Source: an uncultured Gemmatimonadales bacterium
GTDB lineage: Bacteria > Gemmatimonadota > Gemmatimonadetes > Gemmatimonadales > GWC2-71-9
NCBI GenBank assembly: GCA_963748815.1
Contig: CAVVKJ010000005.1
Location: 514,577 to 578,576 of the forward strand
Length of the DNA stretch: 64,000 nt
Direction of reading: 5' to 3'
Of this stretch, positions 6,821 to 58,354 are shown piece after piece. The notes below the pieces were generated by a model. It was not told the origin of the DNA, did no database searches, and saw nothing but the letters and a program-made list of their open reading frames with translations. The position numbers were made by a program, and so were the translations under genes. Within the stretch, counting starts at the first letter, position 1. Each line of letters starts with the position of its first letter.

Positions 6821-9230
6821 ATGACCACGATTCCCGACATCTTCGCCTCGATGGCGTACGGGCCCGCTCCCGAGTCCGCCAAGCCGGCCGAGGAGTGGCT
6901 GGCCCGGCATGGGGGGAGCTTCGGCCTGTTCATCGGCGGCGCATGGACGACGCCGGGCGAGTTGTTCGACACGGTCAACCCGGGGACGGGGCGACGCCTC
7001 GCCGGAGTGACACAGGCGACGGACGCCGATGTGGACCGCGCCGTCGCCGCGGCGCGCGCCGCCCAGCCTGGCTGGTGGGCGCTGGGCGGGCACGGGCGCG
7101 CCCGGCACCTGTACGCGCTCGCGCGGGCGGTGCAGCGCAACGCGCGCCTGCTGTCGGTGCTGGAGTCCCTCGACAATGGCAAGCCGATTCGCGAGTCACG
7201 CGACATCGACATCCCGCTGGTGGCGCGGCACTTCTACCACCACGCCGGGTGGGCGCAGCTGATGGACCGGGAACTCCCCGGCATGGAACCGGTCGGCGTC
7301 GCGGGGCAGATCATCCCCTGGAACTTTCCGATGCTGATGCTGGCCTGGAAAATCGCGCCGGCGCTCGCCATGGGGAACACGGTGGTGCTGAAGCCCGCGG
7401 AGTTCACGTCGCTGACGGCGCTGCTCTTTGCCGAACTGTGCAATGAGGCGGGGCTGCCTCCGGGGGTGGTCAACATCATCACCGGCGATGGTCGGACCGG
7501 CGCCGCCCTCGTGGCGCACCCCGGCGTGGACAAGATCGCGTTCACCGGCTCGACCGACGTCGGCCGCGTCATCCGGGTCGCCACGGCGGGGAGCGGCAAG
7601 AAGCTCTCGCTCGAGCTGGGCGGAAAGTCGCCCTTTCTCGTCTTCGACGACGCCGACCTCGACAGCGTGGTCGAGGGCGTCGTGGACGCGATCTGGTTCA
7701 ACCAGGGGCAGGTCTGCTGCGCGGGGTCCCGGATCCTGGCGCAGGAGGGGATCGCGCCGAAGCTGGAAGCGCGCCTGAAGGCCCGGATGGAGACGCTCCG
7801 CGTGGGCGACCCGCTCGACAAGGCGATCGACATGGGGGCCATCATCGCGCCGGTGCAACTGGAAAAGATTCGCGAGCTGGTGGCGAGAGGGGAGGAGGAG
7901 GGCGCCCGGATGTGGCAGCCGTCGTGGAGCTGCCCGACGGAGGGGTTCTTCTACCCGCCGACCCTCTTCACCGACGTGGCCCCCTCCGCGACGGTGGCGC
8001 AGGTCGAGATCTTCGGGCCGGTCGTCGTGATGATGAGCTTCCGGACCCCGGCCGAGGCGGTCGAACTGGCCAACAACACCCGGTACGGCCTCGCCGCGAG
8101 CGTGTGGACCGAGAACATCAACCTCGCGCTCGACATCGCGCCGAAGGTGAAGGCCGGATCCGTCTGGATCAACTGCACGAACGTCTTCGATGCGGCCGCC
8201 GGGTTTGGCGGCTACCGCGAGAGCGGGTTCGGGCGCGAGGGGGGGAAGGAAGGGCTGTGGGAGTATGTGCGAGAGGCGCCCAGGCGGGGAAGCGGGGAAG
8301 CGGGGAAGTACATGACGCGCAGCGCGACACCCAAGTCGGGGGGCCGCTCCAGCCTCCGCGCTTTCCCGCGTCCCCGCGTCCCCGCCGATCGACCGCACCC
8401 CGAAGCTCTACATCGGCGGGGCGCAGGTGCGCCCCGATTCCGGTTACAGCCTGCCGGTGCACGATGCATCGGGCGCGCCGGCGGGGGAGGTGGGGCACGG
8501 CAACCGGAAGGACATCCGCAACGCCGTCGAGGCGGCGCACGCGGCGCGTGGCTGGGGACGGGCGACCGCGCACCTTCGGGCCCAGGTGCTGTACTACATC
8601 GCCGAGAATCTCGCTGCGCGTCGTGAGGAATTCGTGGGCCGCCTCGTCGACCTGACCGGGCGCACGAAAAGGCAGGGGCGCGACGAGGTCGAGCGGTCGC
8701 TGGCGCGCCTCTTCACCTATGCCGGGTGGGCGGACAAGTGGGATGGCCGCGTCCACCACACCCCGATCCGGAATGTGACCCTCGCGATGCCGGAGCCGCT
8801 GGGCGTCATGGCGGTGGTCTGTCCGGACGACTGGCCGCTGCTCGGTTTCCTCTCCACCACGATGCCACCGCTGGCAATGGGCAACGCCGTGGTGGCGGTG
8901 CCGTCCGGCCGCTGGCCGCTCCTTGCCACGGATCTCTACCAGGTGCTGGATACCTCCGACCTGCCCGGCGGCGCCCTCAACATCGTGACCGGGCCGCGCG
9001 AGGAGCTGGCCGCCGTGCTGGCCGCGCACGACGACGTCGACGCGATGTGGTACTGGGGTTCAGCCGCGGGGAGTGCGGAGGTGGAGCGGCTGTCGGCGGG
9101 CAACCTGAAGCAGACCTGGGTGGATCACGGTCGGGGTGTTCGCTGGGAAACTCCCGCGGAGGGCGAGGGGGAGCGGTTCCTCCGCCGCGCCACCCAGATC
9201 AAGAACGTCTGGGTGCCTTACGGGGAGTAG
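6821..9230 (+). CDS. Two-domain (ALDH16-like) aldehyde dehydrogenase, frameshifted at the G run near 8338-8343
   Basis: PWNFP, FTGST, LELGGKSP and GQVCCAGS in the first ORF. A second truncated ALDH domain (IDRTPKLYIGG...KNVWVPYGE) is in another frame; deleting one G joins them. Confidence 0.9.
8282..8386. repeat. Inverted pair of octamer tandem arrays in the ALDH linker
   Basis: AGGCGGGG-AAGCGGGG-AAGCGGGG-AAG at 8282-8308; TTTCCCGC-GTCCCCGC-GTCCCCGC ending near 8386. Confidence 0.8.
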
Positions 9231-39721: not shown

Positions 39722-42496
39722 ATGACGACCGCTGAGGTCGTGAATGCCACACCCGAGCGGTGGTCGCGGCGGAGCACCTTTCCGGCCGTCGGGCCCGTGG
39801 CGTTCCTGACGGCCATCTACGGCCTTGCCTACCTGTTCTGGGAGCGGTCCGGCATCGGGAGCGCGGCCTTCCGGGACTTCGTCGGCAACGCCGGGTTCAT
39901 GCCGCTGAACCTGACCCTGGCCACGCTCTGTTTCGTCGCCTCGACCCGGCTGGTCCTCGACCCCGGCGTTCGTCGCGCCCTGCGGATGATGGGCATCGGC
40001 TCGACCGCGGTGCTCGTCGGCAACGCCATTTCGGTGTATTACGTGCTGGTCCGCGGGGAGAGTCCCGCCGTCAGCTGGGCCGACCTCTTCTACCTCAGCG
40101 ACAGTTTGCTGCTGCTGGCGGCGTTGCTTGCCTTTCCCCTGACCCGGCGCATCCACCTCGAATGGTGGAAGTTCGTGCTCGACGCCACGATGGTGCTGGT
40201 CGGTGGCGGCGTGATGATCTGGTATTTCACCGTTCGTCCCGGTGCGCCGGGCCTCGTCGAGGGCATCGGCGCCACCGTCATTACCTACGCCTTCCCCCTC
40301 GCCAGCCTGCTCGTCCTGCTCGGAATCACGTCCGTCCTTCTTCGGGGGCCCATCGATCGCAATCGCTGGGCGTTCGGCTTGCTTGTCGGAGGCGTGCTGC
40401 TGAGCGTCATCGCCGACCTGACCTTCGGGCTGATCCAGGTCCAGACCGGCGAGCGGGGCGCCACCCTGGTGGACGCGGTGTACCTGATGGTGTACCTGCT
40501 GCTGATCGCGAGCGCGGAGCTGTACTGGCGGCGGCCGGTCCCCAGGACGGCCGGCACGGAGGAATACCAGCCCCGCTCCCAGCCGCTGAGTCCGCTGCCC
40601 TACCTGGCGGTCGGCGTCACGTTTGGCCTCCTGCTCTTCGAGGCCTTCCAGCCCGACCGGGAGCCGGTCACCCAACTCGCCGTCGGCGCCCTGGCGATCA
40701 CCGGGCTCGTCGTCGTCCGGCAGTTGCTGGCGGTGCGCCAGAACGTGCGCCTGCTCGCCGAGACCGCGGCGCGGCAGAACGAGGCCAGGTTTCGCTCGCT
40801 GGTGCAGCATTCCTCCGACGTGATCCTCGTGGTCGAGGGGGACGGCACCATCCAGTACGTCAGTCCCTCGGCCGCCCGCGTGCTGCGCTACGATCCTGAC
40901 CGGCTGCTCGGGCTCTCGGTCCACTCGCTGCTGGTGGTCGACGACCGCGAGCGTGCCAGCGCGTTCCTGCGCGACGCGGGCCGAACCTCCAGCCTGCCGG
41001 CCCCGATCGAGTGGGGCTTTCGCCAGCCCGACGGGTCGGCGCTTCACACCGAGACCATCGCGACCAACCTCATCAACGATCCCACGGTGCGCGGCATCGT
41101 GCTCAACATCCGGGACGTGAGCGAACGCCAGCGCCTGCGGGACGAGCTGCAGCACCAGGCGTTCCACGATTCGCTGACCGGGCTGGCCAATCGGGCGCTC
41201 TTTCGCGACCGGGTGAGCCACGCGCTCGCCATCGCGCGCCGGCAGGGCCGGGAGGTCACCGTCCTGTACCTTGACCTCGATGATTTCAAGAAGGTCAACG
41301 ACAGCCTGGGGCACGCCGAGGGCGACCAGCTGCTGCGGCTGGCGGCCGAGCGGTTCCTCGCCTGCGCGCGCGCCACCGACACCGTGGCCCGCCTCGGCGG
41401 CGACGAATTCGGCATCCTCATCGAGGACGTGCGCGGCAACGACGGCACCGCGGTGCTGGTCGATCGGCTGGCGGGCGCCATGCACTCCCCGTTCCAGCTG
41501 GGGCACAACGAGGTGCATGTCTCGCTCAGTTTCGGCATCGCCACGGCCGTCGGCGACGAGAGCGCCGACGACCTGCTGCGGAACTCGGACCTGGCGATGT
41601 ACACCGCCAAGCGGCAGGGCAAGGGCCGGTTCGCGACCTACGAGTCGAAGATGGTCTCCGACCTGCGCCACCGGCTGGAGATGGAAGTGGCGCTGCGCGG
41701 GGCGATCGAGCGCGAGGAGCTGGTGCTGCACTACCAGCCGATCATGCACCTGCAGACCGGAGCGATCTTCGGATTCGAGGCCCTCGTGCGGTGGAACCAT
41801 CCGAAGTACGGGCACCTCCTGCCGGGCCACTTCGTCCCGCTCGCGGAAGAGACCGGGCTGATCGTCCGGCTTGGCGCATGGGTGCTGCGCGAGGCGTGTG
41901 CCCAGATCCACCGGTGGCGGCAGGCGCACCCCGGTGCCGACTGGACGATGTGCGTCAACCTGTCCGGACGGCAGTTGCAGGAGCCCGACCTCGTGCCCGA
42001 GACGCGCCTGGCGCTCGGCGTGACCGGCGTCGACCCGTCCGCCCTGGTGCTCGAGATTACCGAGAGCGTGCTCATGCAGCAGGCCGATTCGGCCCAACAG
42101 CAGCTGCGGGCCATGAAGGCGCTGGGCGTCGGCCTCGCGATCGACGACTTCGGCACCGGCTATTCCTCGCTCAGCTACCTGCAGCGGTTCCCGATCGACA
42201 TCCTGAAGATCGCAAAGCCGTTCATCGACGATGTCGGGGCGGGGATCGAGAAATCGGCACTGGCCCGCGCCATCATCGGCCTCGGCGACACCCTGAAGCT
42301 CAAGACCATCGCCGAAGGGGTGGAGATCGCCGAGCAGCGGGAGGCGCTGATGGCGCTCGGGTGCGAGCTGGGGCAGGGGCACCTGTTCGCGAAGGCGCTC
42401 CCAGTGGAGGGAGTAGAGCGGATGCTGCAAGAAGCGGGGAGGCGGGGAAGCGGGGAAGCGGGGAAGCGACTCACAAGCAGGGTAGTGGGATATTGA
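39722..42496 (+). CDS. Membrane-bound PAS-GGDEF-EAL diguanylate cyclase/phosphodiesterase
   Basis: Multi-TM N-terminus, PAS, RLGGDEF, FEALVRW, DDFGTGYSS. Confidence 0.95.
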   Translation: MTTAEVVNATPERWSRRSTFPAVGPVAFLTAIYGLAYLFWERSGIGSAAFRDFVGNAGFMPLNLTLATLCFVASTRLVLDPGVRRALRMMGIGSTAVLVGNAISVYYVLVRGESPAVSWADLFYLSDSLLLLAALLAFPLTRRIHLEWWKFVLDATMVLVGGGVMIWYFTVRPGAPGLVEGIGATVITYAFPLASLLVLLGITSVLLRGPIDRNRWAFGLLVGGVLLSVIADLTFGLIQVQTGERGATLVDAVYLMVYLLLIASAELYWRRPVPRTAGTEEYQPRSQPLSPLPYLAVGVTFGLLLFEAFQPDREPVTQLAVGALAITGLVVVRQLLAVRQNVRLLAETAARQNEARFRSLVQHSSDVILVVEGDGTIQYVSPSAARVLRYDPDRLLGLSVHSLLVVDDRERASAFLRDAGRTSSLPAPIEWGFRQPDGSALHTETIATNLINDPTVRGIVLNIRDVSERQRLRDELQHQAFHDSLTGLANRALFRDRVSHALAIARRQGREVTVLYLDLDDFKKVNDSLGHAEGDQLLRLAAERFLACARATDTVARLGGDEFGILIEDVRGNDGTAVLVDRLAGAMHSPFQLGHNEVHVSLSFGIATAVGDESADDLLRNSDLAMYTAKRQGKGRFATYESKMVSDLRHRLEMEVALRGAIEREELVLHYQPIMHLQTGAIFGFEALVRWNHPKYGHLLPGHFVPLAEETGLIVRLGAWVLREACAQIHRWRQAHPGADWTMCVNLSGRQLQEPDLVPETRLALGVTGVDPSALVLEITESVLMQQADSAQQQLRAMKALGVGLAIDDFGTGYSSLSYLQRFPIDILKIAKPFIDDVGAGIEKSALARAIIGLGDTLKLKTIAEGVEIAEQREALMALGCELGQGHLFAKALPVEGVERMLQEAGRRGSGEAGKRLTSRVVGY
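42431..42468 (+). repeat. Tandem octamer array (GAAGCGGG, about 4.75 units)
   Basis: gaagcggg gaggcggg gaagcggg gaagcggg gaagcg, read directly from sequence. Confidence 0.95.
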
Positions 42497-42553
42497 GCAG
42501 GGCTGCGGCTTCTCGGTCACTACAATTCTGCCAGCCCCTCTCATTTTCCCATC

Positions 42554-42967
42554 ATGCCCACCCTTGCGAAGCGGGAACGCCGTCCGCGGACCCGCCACGA
42601 AGGCCTGAAGGCCTGGCAGTCGGCCCAAGCCCTTACGCTCGCGGTCTACCGGGCTACCAGGAATTGGCCAACAGCAGAGCGGTATGGCCTCGTCTCCCAG
42701 GTCAGGCGAGCTGCGGTTTCGGTGTCGGCGAACATCGCCGAGGGTTCGGCCAGACTGGGCCCCCGAGAGTTCCGTCGATTTCTCGACATCTCGCTCGGGT
42801 CGCTGGCGGAGATTCACGTCTATCTTGTTCTGGCCAAAGAACTTGGGCTGATTTCGATGGCGGAATGGGGGGAGTTGGAGGCACTCCGGGACCACACCGG
42901 CAGACTGATCTGGGGACTTTCAAGGTCGATTCAGAAGCGGCCTGCAAGCTCTGCAATTGCCGGGTAG
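42554..42967 (+). CDS. Four-helix bundle protein (23S rRNA intervening-sequence protein / TIGR02436-like)
   Basis: LKAWQ, ERYGLVSQVRRAAVSVSANIAEG, FLDISLGSLAE. Confidence 0.93.
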   Translation: MPTLAKRERRPRTRHEGLKAWQSAQALTLAVYRATRNWPTAERYGLVSQVRRAAVSVSANIAEGSARLGPREFRRFLDISLGSLAEIHVYLVLAKELGLISMAEWGELEALRDHTGRLIWGLSRSIQKRPASSAIAG

Positions 42968-42980
42968 CCCGCGATTCCAC

Positions 42981-43047
42981 CGCTGCCCCGCTGCCCCGCT
43001 GCCCCGCTGCCCCGCTGCCCCGCTTCCCCGCTTCCCCGCTTCCCCGC
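42981..43047 (+). repeat. Tandem octamer array (CGCTGCCC)x5 (CGCTTCCC)x3, inverted relative to 42431-42468
   Basis: Read directly; CGCTTCCC is the reverse complement of GGGAAGCG. Confidence 0.95.
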
Positions 43048-43088
43048 CCATTGCCCCAACCCCTTAATCCGCTTACGTTTCAGGGCTT

Positions 43089-44421
43089 ATGTTCGACGAG
43101 CTTTCCTCCAAACTGTCCGACACGCTCCGCCGGTTGGCGGGCCGTGGCGTCCTGACGGAGGATGCTGTCAAGGAAGGACTTCGTGAAGTCCGGCGGGTGT
43201 TGCTCGAGGCCGATGTCAGCTTCGACCTCACGCGCGAATTTCTCGAGCGGGTGCAGGCGCGCGCGGTCGGCACCGAAGCGCTGAAGTCGGTGCGTCCCGG
43301 CCAGCAGGTCGTCAAGATCGTGTACGACGAACTGGTCGCGCTGCTCGGCGAGAAGCAGGCGCCGATCGCATTCGCGTCCGTGCCGCCGACGGTCATCCTG
43401 CTCGTGGGGTTGCAGGGGTCCGGCAAGACGACCACCGCCGGCAAGCTGGCGAAGCGCCTCAAGCTGGAGCAGAAGGCGCCGTTCCTGGTGGCGGCCGACG
43501 TGTACCGCCCGGCCGCGGTCGATCAGCTGGTGACGGTGGCGGGGCAGGCGGGGGTCGGGCGTGCACGCGGAGCCGGGTGTCACCGACGTGGTGGGCATCG
43601 TGCGGCGCGGGATCGAGGCGGCGGGCAAGGCGCGGGCGCGTACGGTCCTGGTCGACACCGCCGGCCGGCTGCAGATCGACAGCGAGATGATGGAGGAGCT
43701 GGCGCGGCTCAAGGCCGCGATCAAGCCCCATGAAATCTTGCTCGTGGCCGACGGGATGACCGGGCAGGACGCGGTCCGGATCGCCGGCGGGTTCCACGAG
43801 GCGCTGGGGATCACGGGCGTGATCCTGACCAAGATGGACGGCGACGCCCGGGGTGGCGCGGCCCTCTCCATCTACGGCGTGACCAAGGCGCCGATCAAGT
43901 ACATCGGCGTGGGTGAGAAGCTCGACGCGCTCGAGCCCTTCATCCCGGAGCGGATGGCCGGCCGCATCCTCCAGCAGGGCGACATCCTGAGCCTGGTGGA
44001 AAAGGCCCAGTCATCGCTCGACGAAGAGGAGTCGGGCCGGCTCGCGAAGAAGGCGATGTCGAAGCGAGGCATGGACCTCCAGGATTTCCTGTCGGCCATG
44101 CGGCAGATGCAGAAGCTCGGGCCGCTCAAGAACGTGCTGGGGATGTTGCCCGGGGTGAACGCCCAGATGCTCAAGCAGGCCAACGTGGGCGAGGACCGGC
44201 TGAAGCATGTCGAGGCCATCGTCCTCTCGATGACCCTGAAGGAACGGCAGAACCCCGACCTGCTGAACGGGTCGCGGCGGAGTCGGATTGCCCGGGGCAG
44301 CGGCCGCACGGTGCAGGAAGTCAACCAGTTGATGGCGCAGTTCAAGCAGATGCAGAAGTACATGAAGTCGGCAGGTAAACCCGGCGCTCGCATGCCCTTT
44401 GGGCGCGGGTTCCCCGGCTGA
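43089..44421 (+). CDS. ffh: Signal recognition particle protein, frameshift near 43558
   Basis: LLEADV, GLQGSGKTT, DTAGRLQID, TKMDGDARGGAALS, M domain. Confidence 0.96.
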
Positions 44422-46331: not shown

Positions 46332-47021
46332 GTGACCGCCCGTCGTCCCACGTTGGACCGCGAAGCGGCGGTGTGGGCCGACGGGCAGTTGTTGGTGGGT
46401 GTCGATGAAGCAGGCCGCGGTCCCCTGGCTGGTCCAGTGGTGGCCGCGGCCGTCGTGTTTCCGGTCGGGTCGTCTCGGCTCGAGGGCGTCCGCGACAGCA
46501 AGACGCTCTCGGCCGCGCGCCGGGAGGCGCTGGCCCTCGAGATCCGAGGGGCCGCGCTCGCCATCGGCGTCGGTGGCGCCTCCGTCCGCGAAATCGACGG
46601 GCTGAACATTCGGGTCGCGACGGCCCTCGCCATGCGCCGCGCCCTCCTCCGCATCCTGCCCCGCTGCCCCGCCGCCCCGCCGCCCCGCCTCCTGCTCGAC
46701 GGCCTGCCCATGGCGGAAATCGGCTACCTCCACGACGCGCTCGTCGACGGCGACGCGCACTGCCACAGCATCGCCGCCGCCGGCATCATCGCCAAGACGG
46801 TGCGCGACCGGTTGATGCGCCGGCTCGCTGGCCGGCACGCCGGGTATGGGTGGGATCGCAACAACGGATACGGCAGCGCGGAACATCTGGCGGCGATCGG
46901 GACGCTCGGCCCCACCGACCATCACCGCCGGAGCTTCAGCCCGGTGAGCGGACTGGGACTTCCTACTTGGCCTTCCAGAACGCCTTGTCCTGACTCGCGA
47001 ACGCATCAGGCACGTAACTGA
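46332..47021 (+). CDS. rnhB: Ribonuclease HII
   Basis: GVDEAGRGPLAGPVVAAAV, DSK, IAAAGIIAK, HRRSF. Confidence 0.95.
   Translation: MTARRPTLDREAAVWADGQLLVGVDEAGRGPLAGPVVAAAVVFPVGSSRLEGVRDSKTLSAARREALALEIRGAALAIGVGGASVREIDGLNIRVATALAMRRALLRILPRCPAAPPPRLLLDGLPMAEIGYLHDALVDGDAHCHSIAAAGIIAKTVRDRLMRRLAGRHAGYGWDRNNGYGSAEHLAAIGTLGPTDHHRRSFSPVSGLGLPTWPSRTPCPDSRTHQARN
46656..46689 (+). repeat. Octamer array (C[T/C]GCCCCG)x4 inside rnhB
   Basis: ctgccccg ctgccccg ccgccccg ccgccccg; translates as LPRCPAAPPPR. Confidence 0.8.
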
Positions 47022-58062: not shown

Positions 58063-58161
58063 TCCCGTGCGCGGGCGCACCGACCGGGGTGGGCGCGTCT
58101 CGACCAACCGGGGCCGTCCCGTGCGCGGGCGCACCGACCGGGGTGGGCATATGCCCACCCC
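58063..58161 (+). repeat. Two 32-bp direct repeats ending in a REP-like palindrome
   Basis: TCCCGTGCGCGGGCGCACCGACCGGGGTGGGC at 58063 and 58117; GGGGTGGGCAT-ATGCCCACCCC at 58140-58161. Confidence 0.85.
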
Positions 58162-58354
58162 TATTCAAAGGGGTTCAACCCAATGTGCCAGACGCCAGGG
58201 ATCTCCACGGCTAAGCAATTCCGTGAGGCTGCCTCTAGACGCCTTCGATGGCCGTTTGCACCGTCGGCCCCGCTTCCCCGCCATCCCGGCGCTTTCGCCA
58301 GGGTGCTCGTCCTATTAAACTTGCCACGCGCGCGGCCGGGTGGCGGCGCGCCGA

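Follow-up and report, generated by a model that had tools for sequence, protein, structure and literature searches.

In the genome of an uncultured Gemmatimonadales bacterium (assembly GCA_963748815.1), a short gene encoding a four-helix-bundle protein of the family PF05635/TIGR02436 is enclosed by two inverted tandem arrays of octamers, and the word repeated in these arms also forms arrays dispersed over the whole genome. The gene and its arms, together called the cassette here, lie between the gene of a PAS-GGDEF-EAL protein (the EAL gene) and ffh, within a stretch of 64,000 nucleotides (nt) of contig CAVVKJ010000005.1 (positions 514,577 to 578,576), which was analysed as a whole and is referred to as the window. 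In congeneric genomes the gene has been exchanged between lineages, the word of the arms matches the word found elsewhere in the genome, and arrays have been gained in frame and rewritten in place inside coding sequences. The best explanation, on which our judgement is evenly balanced, is a pair comparable to RAYT genes and their REPINs, that is to say, a likely non-catalytic pentamer would bind its own word and host enzymes would copy it.

The four-helix gene and its inverted arms

The open reading frame (ORF) matches PF05635 with an E value of 3.5e-31 (108 bits against a cut-off of 33.8) and TIGR02436 with 100 bits (cut-off 24), and it is the only PF05635 copy detected in the genome, which measures 3.16 Mb and is 86% complete. 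A four-helix bundle is predicted for the product with a mean predicted local distance difference test score (pLDDT) of 89.6. The closest structure is the pentameric 2GSC (XCC0516), with a template modelling (TM) score of 0.82, followed by 2RLD and then, weakly, by Avd in 4DWL (E 0.017, TM 0.66, 9% identity). On the model of 2GSC, the protein is predicted to be a basic ring of five subunits. The gene is under purifying selection: among 45 pairs of 10 intact genes, pN is 0.035–0.225 and pS is 0.32–0.78, with a median pN/pS of 0.24. Its G+C content at third codon positions (GC3) is 0.70 against 0.88–0.92 in five neighbours, which bears out what the initial annotation had judged by eye.

The octamer arrays, the family assignment and the match between the arms described in that annotation are all confirmed. 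Tandem Repeats Finder (TRF) reports 4.8 copies of GAAGCGGG at 42431–42468 and 8.5 copies at 42980–43047, and positions 42427–42468 agree with the reverse complement of 43013–43054 at 37 of 42 positions, including a 28-nt core that is 100% complementary. The left arm is contained in the 3′-terminal codons of the EAL gene. When the span 42427–43054 is folded in silico, the arms pair with each other as had been supposed (z −5.6; 0 of 20 shuffles as low). Moreover, gene and arms are also present on independent short-read contigs, on which the right arm is about 29 nt shorter in two runs. The arrays enclose the gene but are not private to it, as the genome holds a family of 168 such arrays.

The cassette can still be regarded as a discrete repeat-bounded unit with no recombinase, reverse transcriptase or evident target duplication, as first described. 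No long direct repeats occur within 42000–43500, the 86%-complete genome gave no match to the reverse transcriptase family PF00078, and an Rfam scan gave no match above threshold and two matches at chance level. Fixed ends and a target duplication, which characterize insertion sequences and miniature inverted-repeat transposable elements, were not seen, the sole empty site (in congener G009) being too diverged for a base-exact junction; nor is there a multi-copy element of that kind, since this genome has one gene copy and the spacers of the gene-less array pairs are mutually unlike. The GCAA/TTGC ends once assigned to the cassette have to be given up: TTGC precedes ffh in 12 of 12 genomes, one without a cassette included, and the left GCAA is not kept. 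The sequence TTGCCC-N17-TACGTT, 2–3 nt short of which the right arm ends, is probably the promoter of ffh.

Of 2,896 genes, a single one has a purine array upstream and a pyrimidine array downstream of it, and this one is the four-helix gene. Marginal rates (51 and 42 of 2,896) lead to an expectation of about 0.7 bracketed genes genome-wide, but the probability that a particular named gene is bracketed is about 3e-4. The gene set was called with a custom hexamer model (2,894 genes), which misses genes of low GC3 including the four-helix gene, so that this gene and the 5′ part of ffh were added manually.

The enclosing design is common to the family, and the enrichment of inverted arrays proposed as a check was found. 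In 41 related genomes, 88 PF05635 matches were present, of which 71, mostly the strongest, were examined and 2 had flanks that were too short. With a score of at least 30 between upstream and downstream flanks, inverted arms occur at 60 of these 69 order-level loci (direct matches at 4) and at 30 of 2,862 ordinary genes, mostly owing to other palindromic repeats. Inverted arms were likewise found at 62 of 71 metagenome loci (80 loci, 9 too short), and inverted heptamer arms in all 6 cyanobacterial plasmid copies taken from 21 plasmid records. The homologues with inverted arms have arm words of their own, of 7–10 nt, words without G tracts such as AGGCAAT, AGTYGTG and GAATGATG are frequent, and in G023 each paralogue has a different word. 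Relatives were found once in viral contigs and in 21 plasmid records, mostly cyanobacterial, so that nothing points to a phage or a plasmid as the vehicle of this clade.

According to the supplement of Rehm et al. 2015 (PMC4692102), as far as it is available, a GGGAATC array lies at the start of XCC0516. At 17 of 21 loci with a GGGAATC array, a homologous gene comes after the array, and a degenerate inverted array lies between this gene and its downstream neighbour; the remaining 4 loci have no such gene. In a proteobacterial metagenome-assembled genome (locus L066), an inverted GGGAATC pair stands in frame in a coding sequence that we take to be MetRS-like.

The same design, with other words, occurs at 21 of 29 loci of GxxExxY, an unrelated family with a nuclease fold, which suggests that the two families share one logic, in which a protein reads a word and the chemistry may differ. 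Two GxxExxY genes between inverted arrays of their own words are present in this genome (G000), at L077 (G000:C19:57318-57755) and L078 (G000:C14:122030-122510); 10 of 16 CGCGAAGR arrays are on the 114-kb contig carrying L077, and congeners hold two different cassette types at the L078 site.

The leaders of the homologues have a common motif ending in a −10-like box 5–6 nt 5′ of ATG, and in this gene the box lies 6 nt upstream of ATG. When a leader model was trained on 19 homologues (9 orthologues) with the leader of this gene held out, the held-out leader ranked 1 among 2,889 genes and 2 among 177,949 start codons. The motif is likely to be a leaderless promoter, and with the −10-like box it implies that the mRNA of the gene probably starts inside the cassette, without the left arm. 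A strict scan for sigma-70 promoters and terminators found none. Four metatranscriptome assemblies, in which only small shares of the region are represented, contain no contig across the gene, and contig joints seemingly skipping it were discounted, having sides of at most 30 nt that derive from other arrays. A competence promoter was also considered and is not supported: candidate comEC, comM, radC, comF and recA genes, which we picked by presumed peptide motifs, rank 276–2591 with the leader motif, and an ORF that looks comEA-like by eye scored modestly among start codons. Next to a 13-unit array at G000:C14:4700-5060 lies a truncated ORF, presumably GIY-YIG-like, with a leader score resembling that of the four-helix gene.

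Dispersed arrays and the word of the resident allele

The genome contains 227 arrays of period 7 or 8, namely 168 of the GCGGGG(A/C)A family, 41 of GACTGAG, 15 of GCGAAG/CACGAA and 3 others. The octamer unit is strand-asymmetric and tandem, not a palindrome. With a stricter detector, 153 arrays were counted in the genome, and 1.5 Mb of Markov-simulated sequence yielded a single one. Of the 153, 87 are within 30 nt of a gene end, compared with 13% for random positions. At stop codons the purine strand is the sense strand in 66 cases and antisense in 12, and arrays are present at 44 of 315 convergent and 97 of 2,246 co-directional junctions, while in coding regions 17 arrays are purine-sense and 19 pyrimidine-sense. 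Array pairs of one family less than 800 nt apart are arranged purine-then-pyrimidine in 18 cases and in reverse in 1 (p 8e-5), that is, in the orientation of the cassette. Local spread from the cassette can be dismissed, as the density of octamer arrays is uniform over the contig (7, 7, 4, 7, 4 and 5 per 100 kb). Near-identical gene copies occur on contigs C5, C15 and C16 of G000; they suggest strain duplicates, so that the array counts may be slightly inflated.

Among 17 congeneric genomes, the four-helix gene stands between EAL and ffh in 12. Contig ends break the locus at an arm in G005 and G006, most of EAL is deleted in G014, and in G015 the left arm and the start of the gene are visible. 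EAL and ffh adjoin without gene or arrays in G009, which provides the empty site that had been called for; EAL and gene are both missing in G007, G004 has an assembly gap, and the locus is missing in G016. As side observations, a deletion in G014 (L034) joins the 5′ end of EAL to the left arm, and in G007 (L033), where EAL and the gene are lost, a decayed right arm remains; the endpoints of both EAL deletions are thus at or beside arrays.

The gene tree separates allele A (G000, G005, G011 and G012, with GCGGGGAA arms) from allele B, which comprises G001, G002, G003, G006, G008 and G014 with GGCAGGGA arms and G013 and G010 with other words. The alleles are about 70% identical, with nine or so diagnostic residues, including those at positions 15, 70, 88, 92, 117, 119 and 123. 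By ffh and a distant polymerase locus, G000 and G005 nest among G001, G002, G006, G008 and G014. In approximately unbiased (AU) tests, the host clade is rejected for the gene (p 0.0008). Conversely, the allele-A clade is rejected with p 3e-6 for ffh, 2e-41 for the polymerase locus and 2e-32 for a second unlinked locus, in which G005 is missing; for EAL it is not rejected (0.059). Therefore, the four-helix gene has been exchanged between lineages, presumably by homologous recombination through the EAL and ffh flanks.

The words elsewhere in these genomes correspond to the allele. Exact GGCAGGGA arrays outside the cassette are present at 6, 14, 3, 6, 2 and 6 places in the six B genomes with such arms, at none in all 4 A genomes and G015, and at one each in G013 and G016; two of the A genomes nest among B carriers, yet have no GGCAGGGA arrays. 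The share of the A word among octamer matches is about 0.7–0.9 in A carriers and, with one exception, 0.01–0.4 in the seven B-clade carriers whose arms are of the GCGGGG type or GGCAGGGA, these shares being approximate, as the A and B word patterns are one base apart. The three congeners without such a gene beside an assembled ffh have 0 (G007), 0 (G009) and 4 (G004) octamer matches.

When each of five arm words was looked up in five genomes, the genomes of origin had 22, 23, 112, 77 and 119 matches, and 18 of the 20 off-diagonal cells are 0. In sampled DNA of five genomes without a PF05635 hit, 1 array was found in 124 kb, 1 in 149, 0 in 170, 0 in 108 and 7 in 124 (G028), so that four of the five are array-poor, compared with 25–148 arrays per Mb in carriers; fragmented assemblies may lose arrays in these densities. 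On a quick tree of 139 proteins (56 rows without period label), unit length is clustered, with 39 changes against a shuffled mean of 70, and the labelled rows in the 86-row group of this protein are only 8–10-mers; alone, this clustering is weak evidence, since kin share labels. Moreover, two TAGGG-armed cyanobacterial proteins and the Xanthomonas protein are nearest to TAGGG-armed Gemmatimonadales proteins.

How arrays change can be followed in coding loops. In the polymerase gene, a loop is 21–42 nt longer than in G009 in 13 of 16 genomes, with an array in most of them; G009 and G007 lack the array, the empty site has a partial unit, and the in-frame gain amounts to 24 nt. In a second loop of the same gene, G000 and G014 have equal length, with A and B words, respectively. 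The loop of the gene that we take to be RNase HII-like (46658–46689) is of equal length in 14 genomes, non-periodic in G009 and composed of mixed words in the others. That is to say, new arrays enter coding sequences in frame, no target duplication being visible, and their units are subsequently replaced one at a time; array sites also differ in presence between congeners.

Table 1. Positions of the cassette, its host genes and related arrays in the window.
Feature	Position	Strand	Remarks
Left host gene, PAS-GGDEF-EAL protein	39722..42496	+	
Left arm, purine-rich octamer array	42431..42468	+	GCGGGGAA x4.8; within last EAL codons
Leader motif	42502..42547	+	GCTGCG 42502-42507, CGGTCAC 42514-42520, -10-like CATTTT 42542-42547
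Four-helix-bundle gene, PF05635/TIGR02436, allele A	42554..42967	+	137 aa, isoelectric point 11.2
Right arm, pyrimidine-rich	42980..43047	+	five CCCCGCTG-type units, then three and a half CCCCGCTT-type units
TTGCCC-N17-TACGTT 5′ of ffh	43051..43079	+	host sequence, not cassette; kept in 12/12 genomes including the empty site
Right host gene ffh	43089..44421	+	
Gene-less array, GCGGGG(A/C)A family	46658..46689	+	in RNase HII-like gene (presumed name)
Gene-less inverted pair, GCGGGG(A/C)A family	8284..8385	+	50-nt spacer; cassette-like orientation

Some further observations concern the repeats and the neighbourhood. At G000:C5:107800-108500, where five or six congeners carry a heptamer-armed four-helix gene, this genome has an unrelated membrane-protein-like ORF on the opposite strand. 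The single Y1/RAYT gene of the genome (L150, G000:C5:409955-410290) is flanked by its own palindrome, copies of which are also found at 58064–58163 of the window, beside a GACTGAG array and tRNA-Asn. At L373 (G000:C13:11900-18400), seven arrays, far above the genome mean, lie inside the coding regions of an operon whose genes we presume to be those of an error-prone polymerase, and one loop receives a different palindromic element in several congeners. An extra base at 43556 splits ffh; it is absent from the contigs of four of four independent runs, and this frameshift is an assembly error.

How gene and repeat may be connected

It is likely that the protein reads the repeat that flanks its gene and promotes the spread of this repeat, the pentamer itself likely being non-catalytic. 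Following what is described for Avd, in which five protomers bind RNA and hold flipped-out bases between them (10.1101/2023.10.23.563531, as far as available), the ring would bind its word on single-stranded DNA, with one unit in each subunit crevice. It would act in trans, and host repair synthesis would do the chemistry, inserting and rewriting arrays at partial seeds. Selection would leave arrays at gene ends and in tolerant loops, while the gene itself would stay between two arrays of its own and be swapped by recombination through the conserved flanks. The term "non-autonomous" given to the cassette earlier is then probably to be reversed, in that the gene-less arrays look dependent and the single gene looks like their partner.

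Several observations tell against such a pair. No catalytic motif is recognised in the four-helix protein. Gene and arms always move together, so that protein specificity and templating by the arms cannot be separated by sequence. The allele contrast derives from a small number of independent events; all B carriers retain some A arrays, and in G014, which carries allele B, the A word is dominant (45 of 52 octamer matches, 0.87). G000 and G002 show a word in the RNase HII-like loop that is not dominant in their genomes. G013 has 175 octamer matches and a frameshifted gene; the gene of G005 is also frameshifted, and both frameshifts may be assembly errors, like that of ffh in the window. In addition, 41 GACTGAG arrays remain in this genome though the site at which the heptamer-armed homologue usually lies does not contain it here, and five more congeners with the octamer gene as sole hit have 14–37 GACTGAG matches. 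Moreover, AGGGTGT has 12 and 16 matches in two non-cognate genomes, G028 has its 7 arrays despite no PF05635 hit, and two heptamer-armed cyanobacterial proteins are nearest, by a thin margin, to proteins of the octamer clade.

The protein could instead be an RNA-binding ring like TRAP that is useful to the host, the arrays being its binding sites near stop codons, which arise by slippage and are kept by selection; the word would then follow the allele because of selection, without any copying driven by the protein. The sense polarity at stop codons, the excess at convergent junctions, the matching polarity in Xanthomonas and Nostoc (PMC4692102, available part), the purifying selection on the gene, the equal-length rewriting in a coding loop and the RNA binding of Avd (10.1101/2023.10.23.563531) would all agree with this. 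It is nevertheless considered unlikely: coding regions contain both strands in similar numbers, array sites are unstable between congeners and several genomes have lost the gene or carry a broken one, simple duplication does not account for the gain of 24 nt with a word that the empty site lacks, and the unrelated GxxExxY family has the same design. An equally doubtful alternative treats the arms as master copies that another, shared enzyme copies, with the four-helix gene as a cargo or accessory that only keeps the cassette, so that the word follows the cassette DNA and not the specificity of the protein. The inseparability of gene and arms, the single arm design of two unrelated protein families, the arrays that outlive their gene and the missing catalytic motif speak for it. 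Yet about 170 arrays could serve as template and the genome-wide word still tracks the resident allele, word type tracks the protein clade across phyla, the RAYT and GxxExxY genes of this genome carry other repeats, and no reverse transcriptase was found.

The initial annotation itself had suggested a cassette like an intervening sequence (IVS) of 23S rRNA. On this reading, the two arms would form a stem in the RNA and a double-strand RNase would excise the ORF. The predicted stem around the ORF and the shared protein family fit this, as does the Coxiella IVS, in which tandem heptamers precede the ORF and which RNase III cleaves (PMC4990558, as available). This is now very improbable, since RNase III was found neither in this genome, where a second model agrees, nor in 40 of 41 Gemmatimonadales genomes; the cassette lies outside rRNA, it has a likely internal promoter, cutting would remove the stop codon of EAL, and single arrays would be left unexplained. 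Among several near-complete genomes, RNase III was found in only one, the 1 of the 41. Ordinary simple-sequence repeats, produced by slippage or by selection for G-quadruplexes, around a gene bracketed by chance, are hardly credible either. The roughly 0.7 bracketed genes expected genome-wide and the capacity of GCGGGG tracts for quadruplexes, following a proposal in the available text of PMC4692102, would allow this, but the chance for a named gene is small, most homologues are bracketed as well, by words different from this one, and the homologue counts have already refuted it.

More generally, but with less confidence than for the locus itself, four-helix rings may be sequence-specific writers of tandem words of 7–10 bases that work without a nuclease or reverse transcriptase of their own, even inside genes; each allele would read a single word and, together with enzymes of the host, start, lengthen and rewrite its arrays throughout the chromosome. 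If so, the unexplained heptamers and octamers that are repeated in Xanthomonas, in heterocystous cyanobacteria and in Gemmatimonadota would have one cause, rRNA intervening sequences would be stranded copies of the same cassette, and there would be a family of programmable repeat-reading rings. Two questions are joined here, namely the role of the S23p/IVP proteins, whose function is not known according to the available text of PMC4990558, and the origin of the excess of 7–8-base tandem repeats in many bacteria. The available text of PMC10053308 connects PF05635 with Avd only, and no paper pairing the PF05635 family with tandem arrays was found in the open-licence literature, by which subscription journals are largely uncovered. 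What this locus contributes is the exchange of alleles with the word following the allele, as well as the link to XCC0516; two alleles, two repeat words and sister genomes with either amount to a natural swap experiment.

Comparison with known systems

The nearest parallel is RAYT/REPIN (Bertels and Rainey 2011, PMC3337134), for which the available text likewise describes a short single-copy gene that evolves under purifying selection and is bordered by a repeat of its own, one repeat type per gene type, and gene-less inverted pairs and singlets across the genome. A single-copy gene with one dispersed repeat type and inverted pairs is also what was found here. In contrast to RAYT/REPIN, the protein is a four-helix bundle and not an HUH tyrosine transposase, the Y1 gene of this genome being elsewhere with its own palindrome; the repeats are tandem non-palindromic 7–10-mers with no palindromic REP unit, and the arrays also enter coding loops, where they are rewritten in place. 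Similarly, Ssn with its NTS and SRM sequences (Chenal et al. 2025, PMC11893778), in the part available, has the order repeat–gene–repeat, hundreds of dispersed cognate copies and protein–repeat pairs that differ between species, but Ssn belongs to the GIY-YIG nucleases and the SRMs form hairpins, whereas the four-helix protein has no GIY-YIG or other nuclease fold and its arrays are tandem. The defining enzyme and repeat shape of both systems are absent from this cassette, and the logic is alike.

The ORF-bearing IVS of 23S rRNA (S23p; Coxiella, PMC4990558, available text) belongs to the same family and has an ORF between inverted repeats with heptamers in the 5′ arm; unlike it, the present cassette is outside rRNA in an order without detectable RNase III, its gene is intact and conserved, and its cognate arrays are dispersed. 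Avd of diversity-generating retroelements (4DWL) is a basic protein of related fold, but no reverse transcriptase, template or variable repeat was found here, and the nearest structure is 2GSC. Finally, the GGGAATC and GGGGA(C/T)T repeats of Xanthomonas and Nostoc (Rehm et al. 2015, PMC4692102) are alike in their dispersed arrays, convergent pairs and gene-end polarity; in its available part, that report suggests that the repeats form quadruplexes, makes no mention of a partner protein and does not settle what the repeats do or where they come from.

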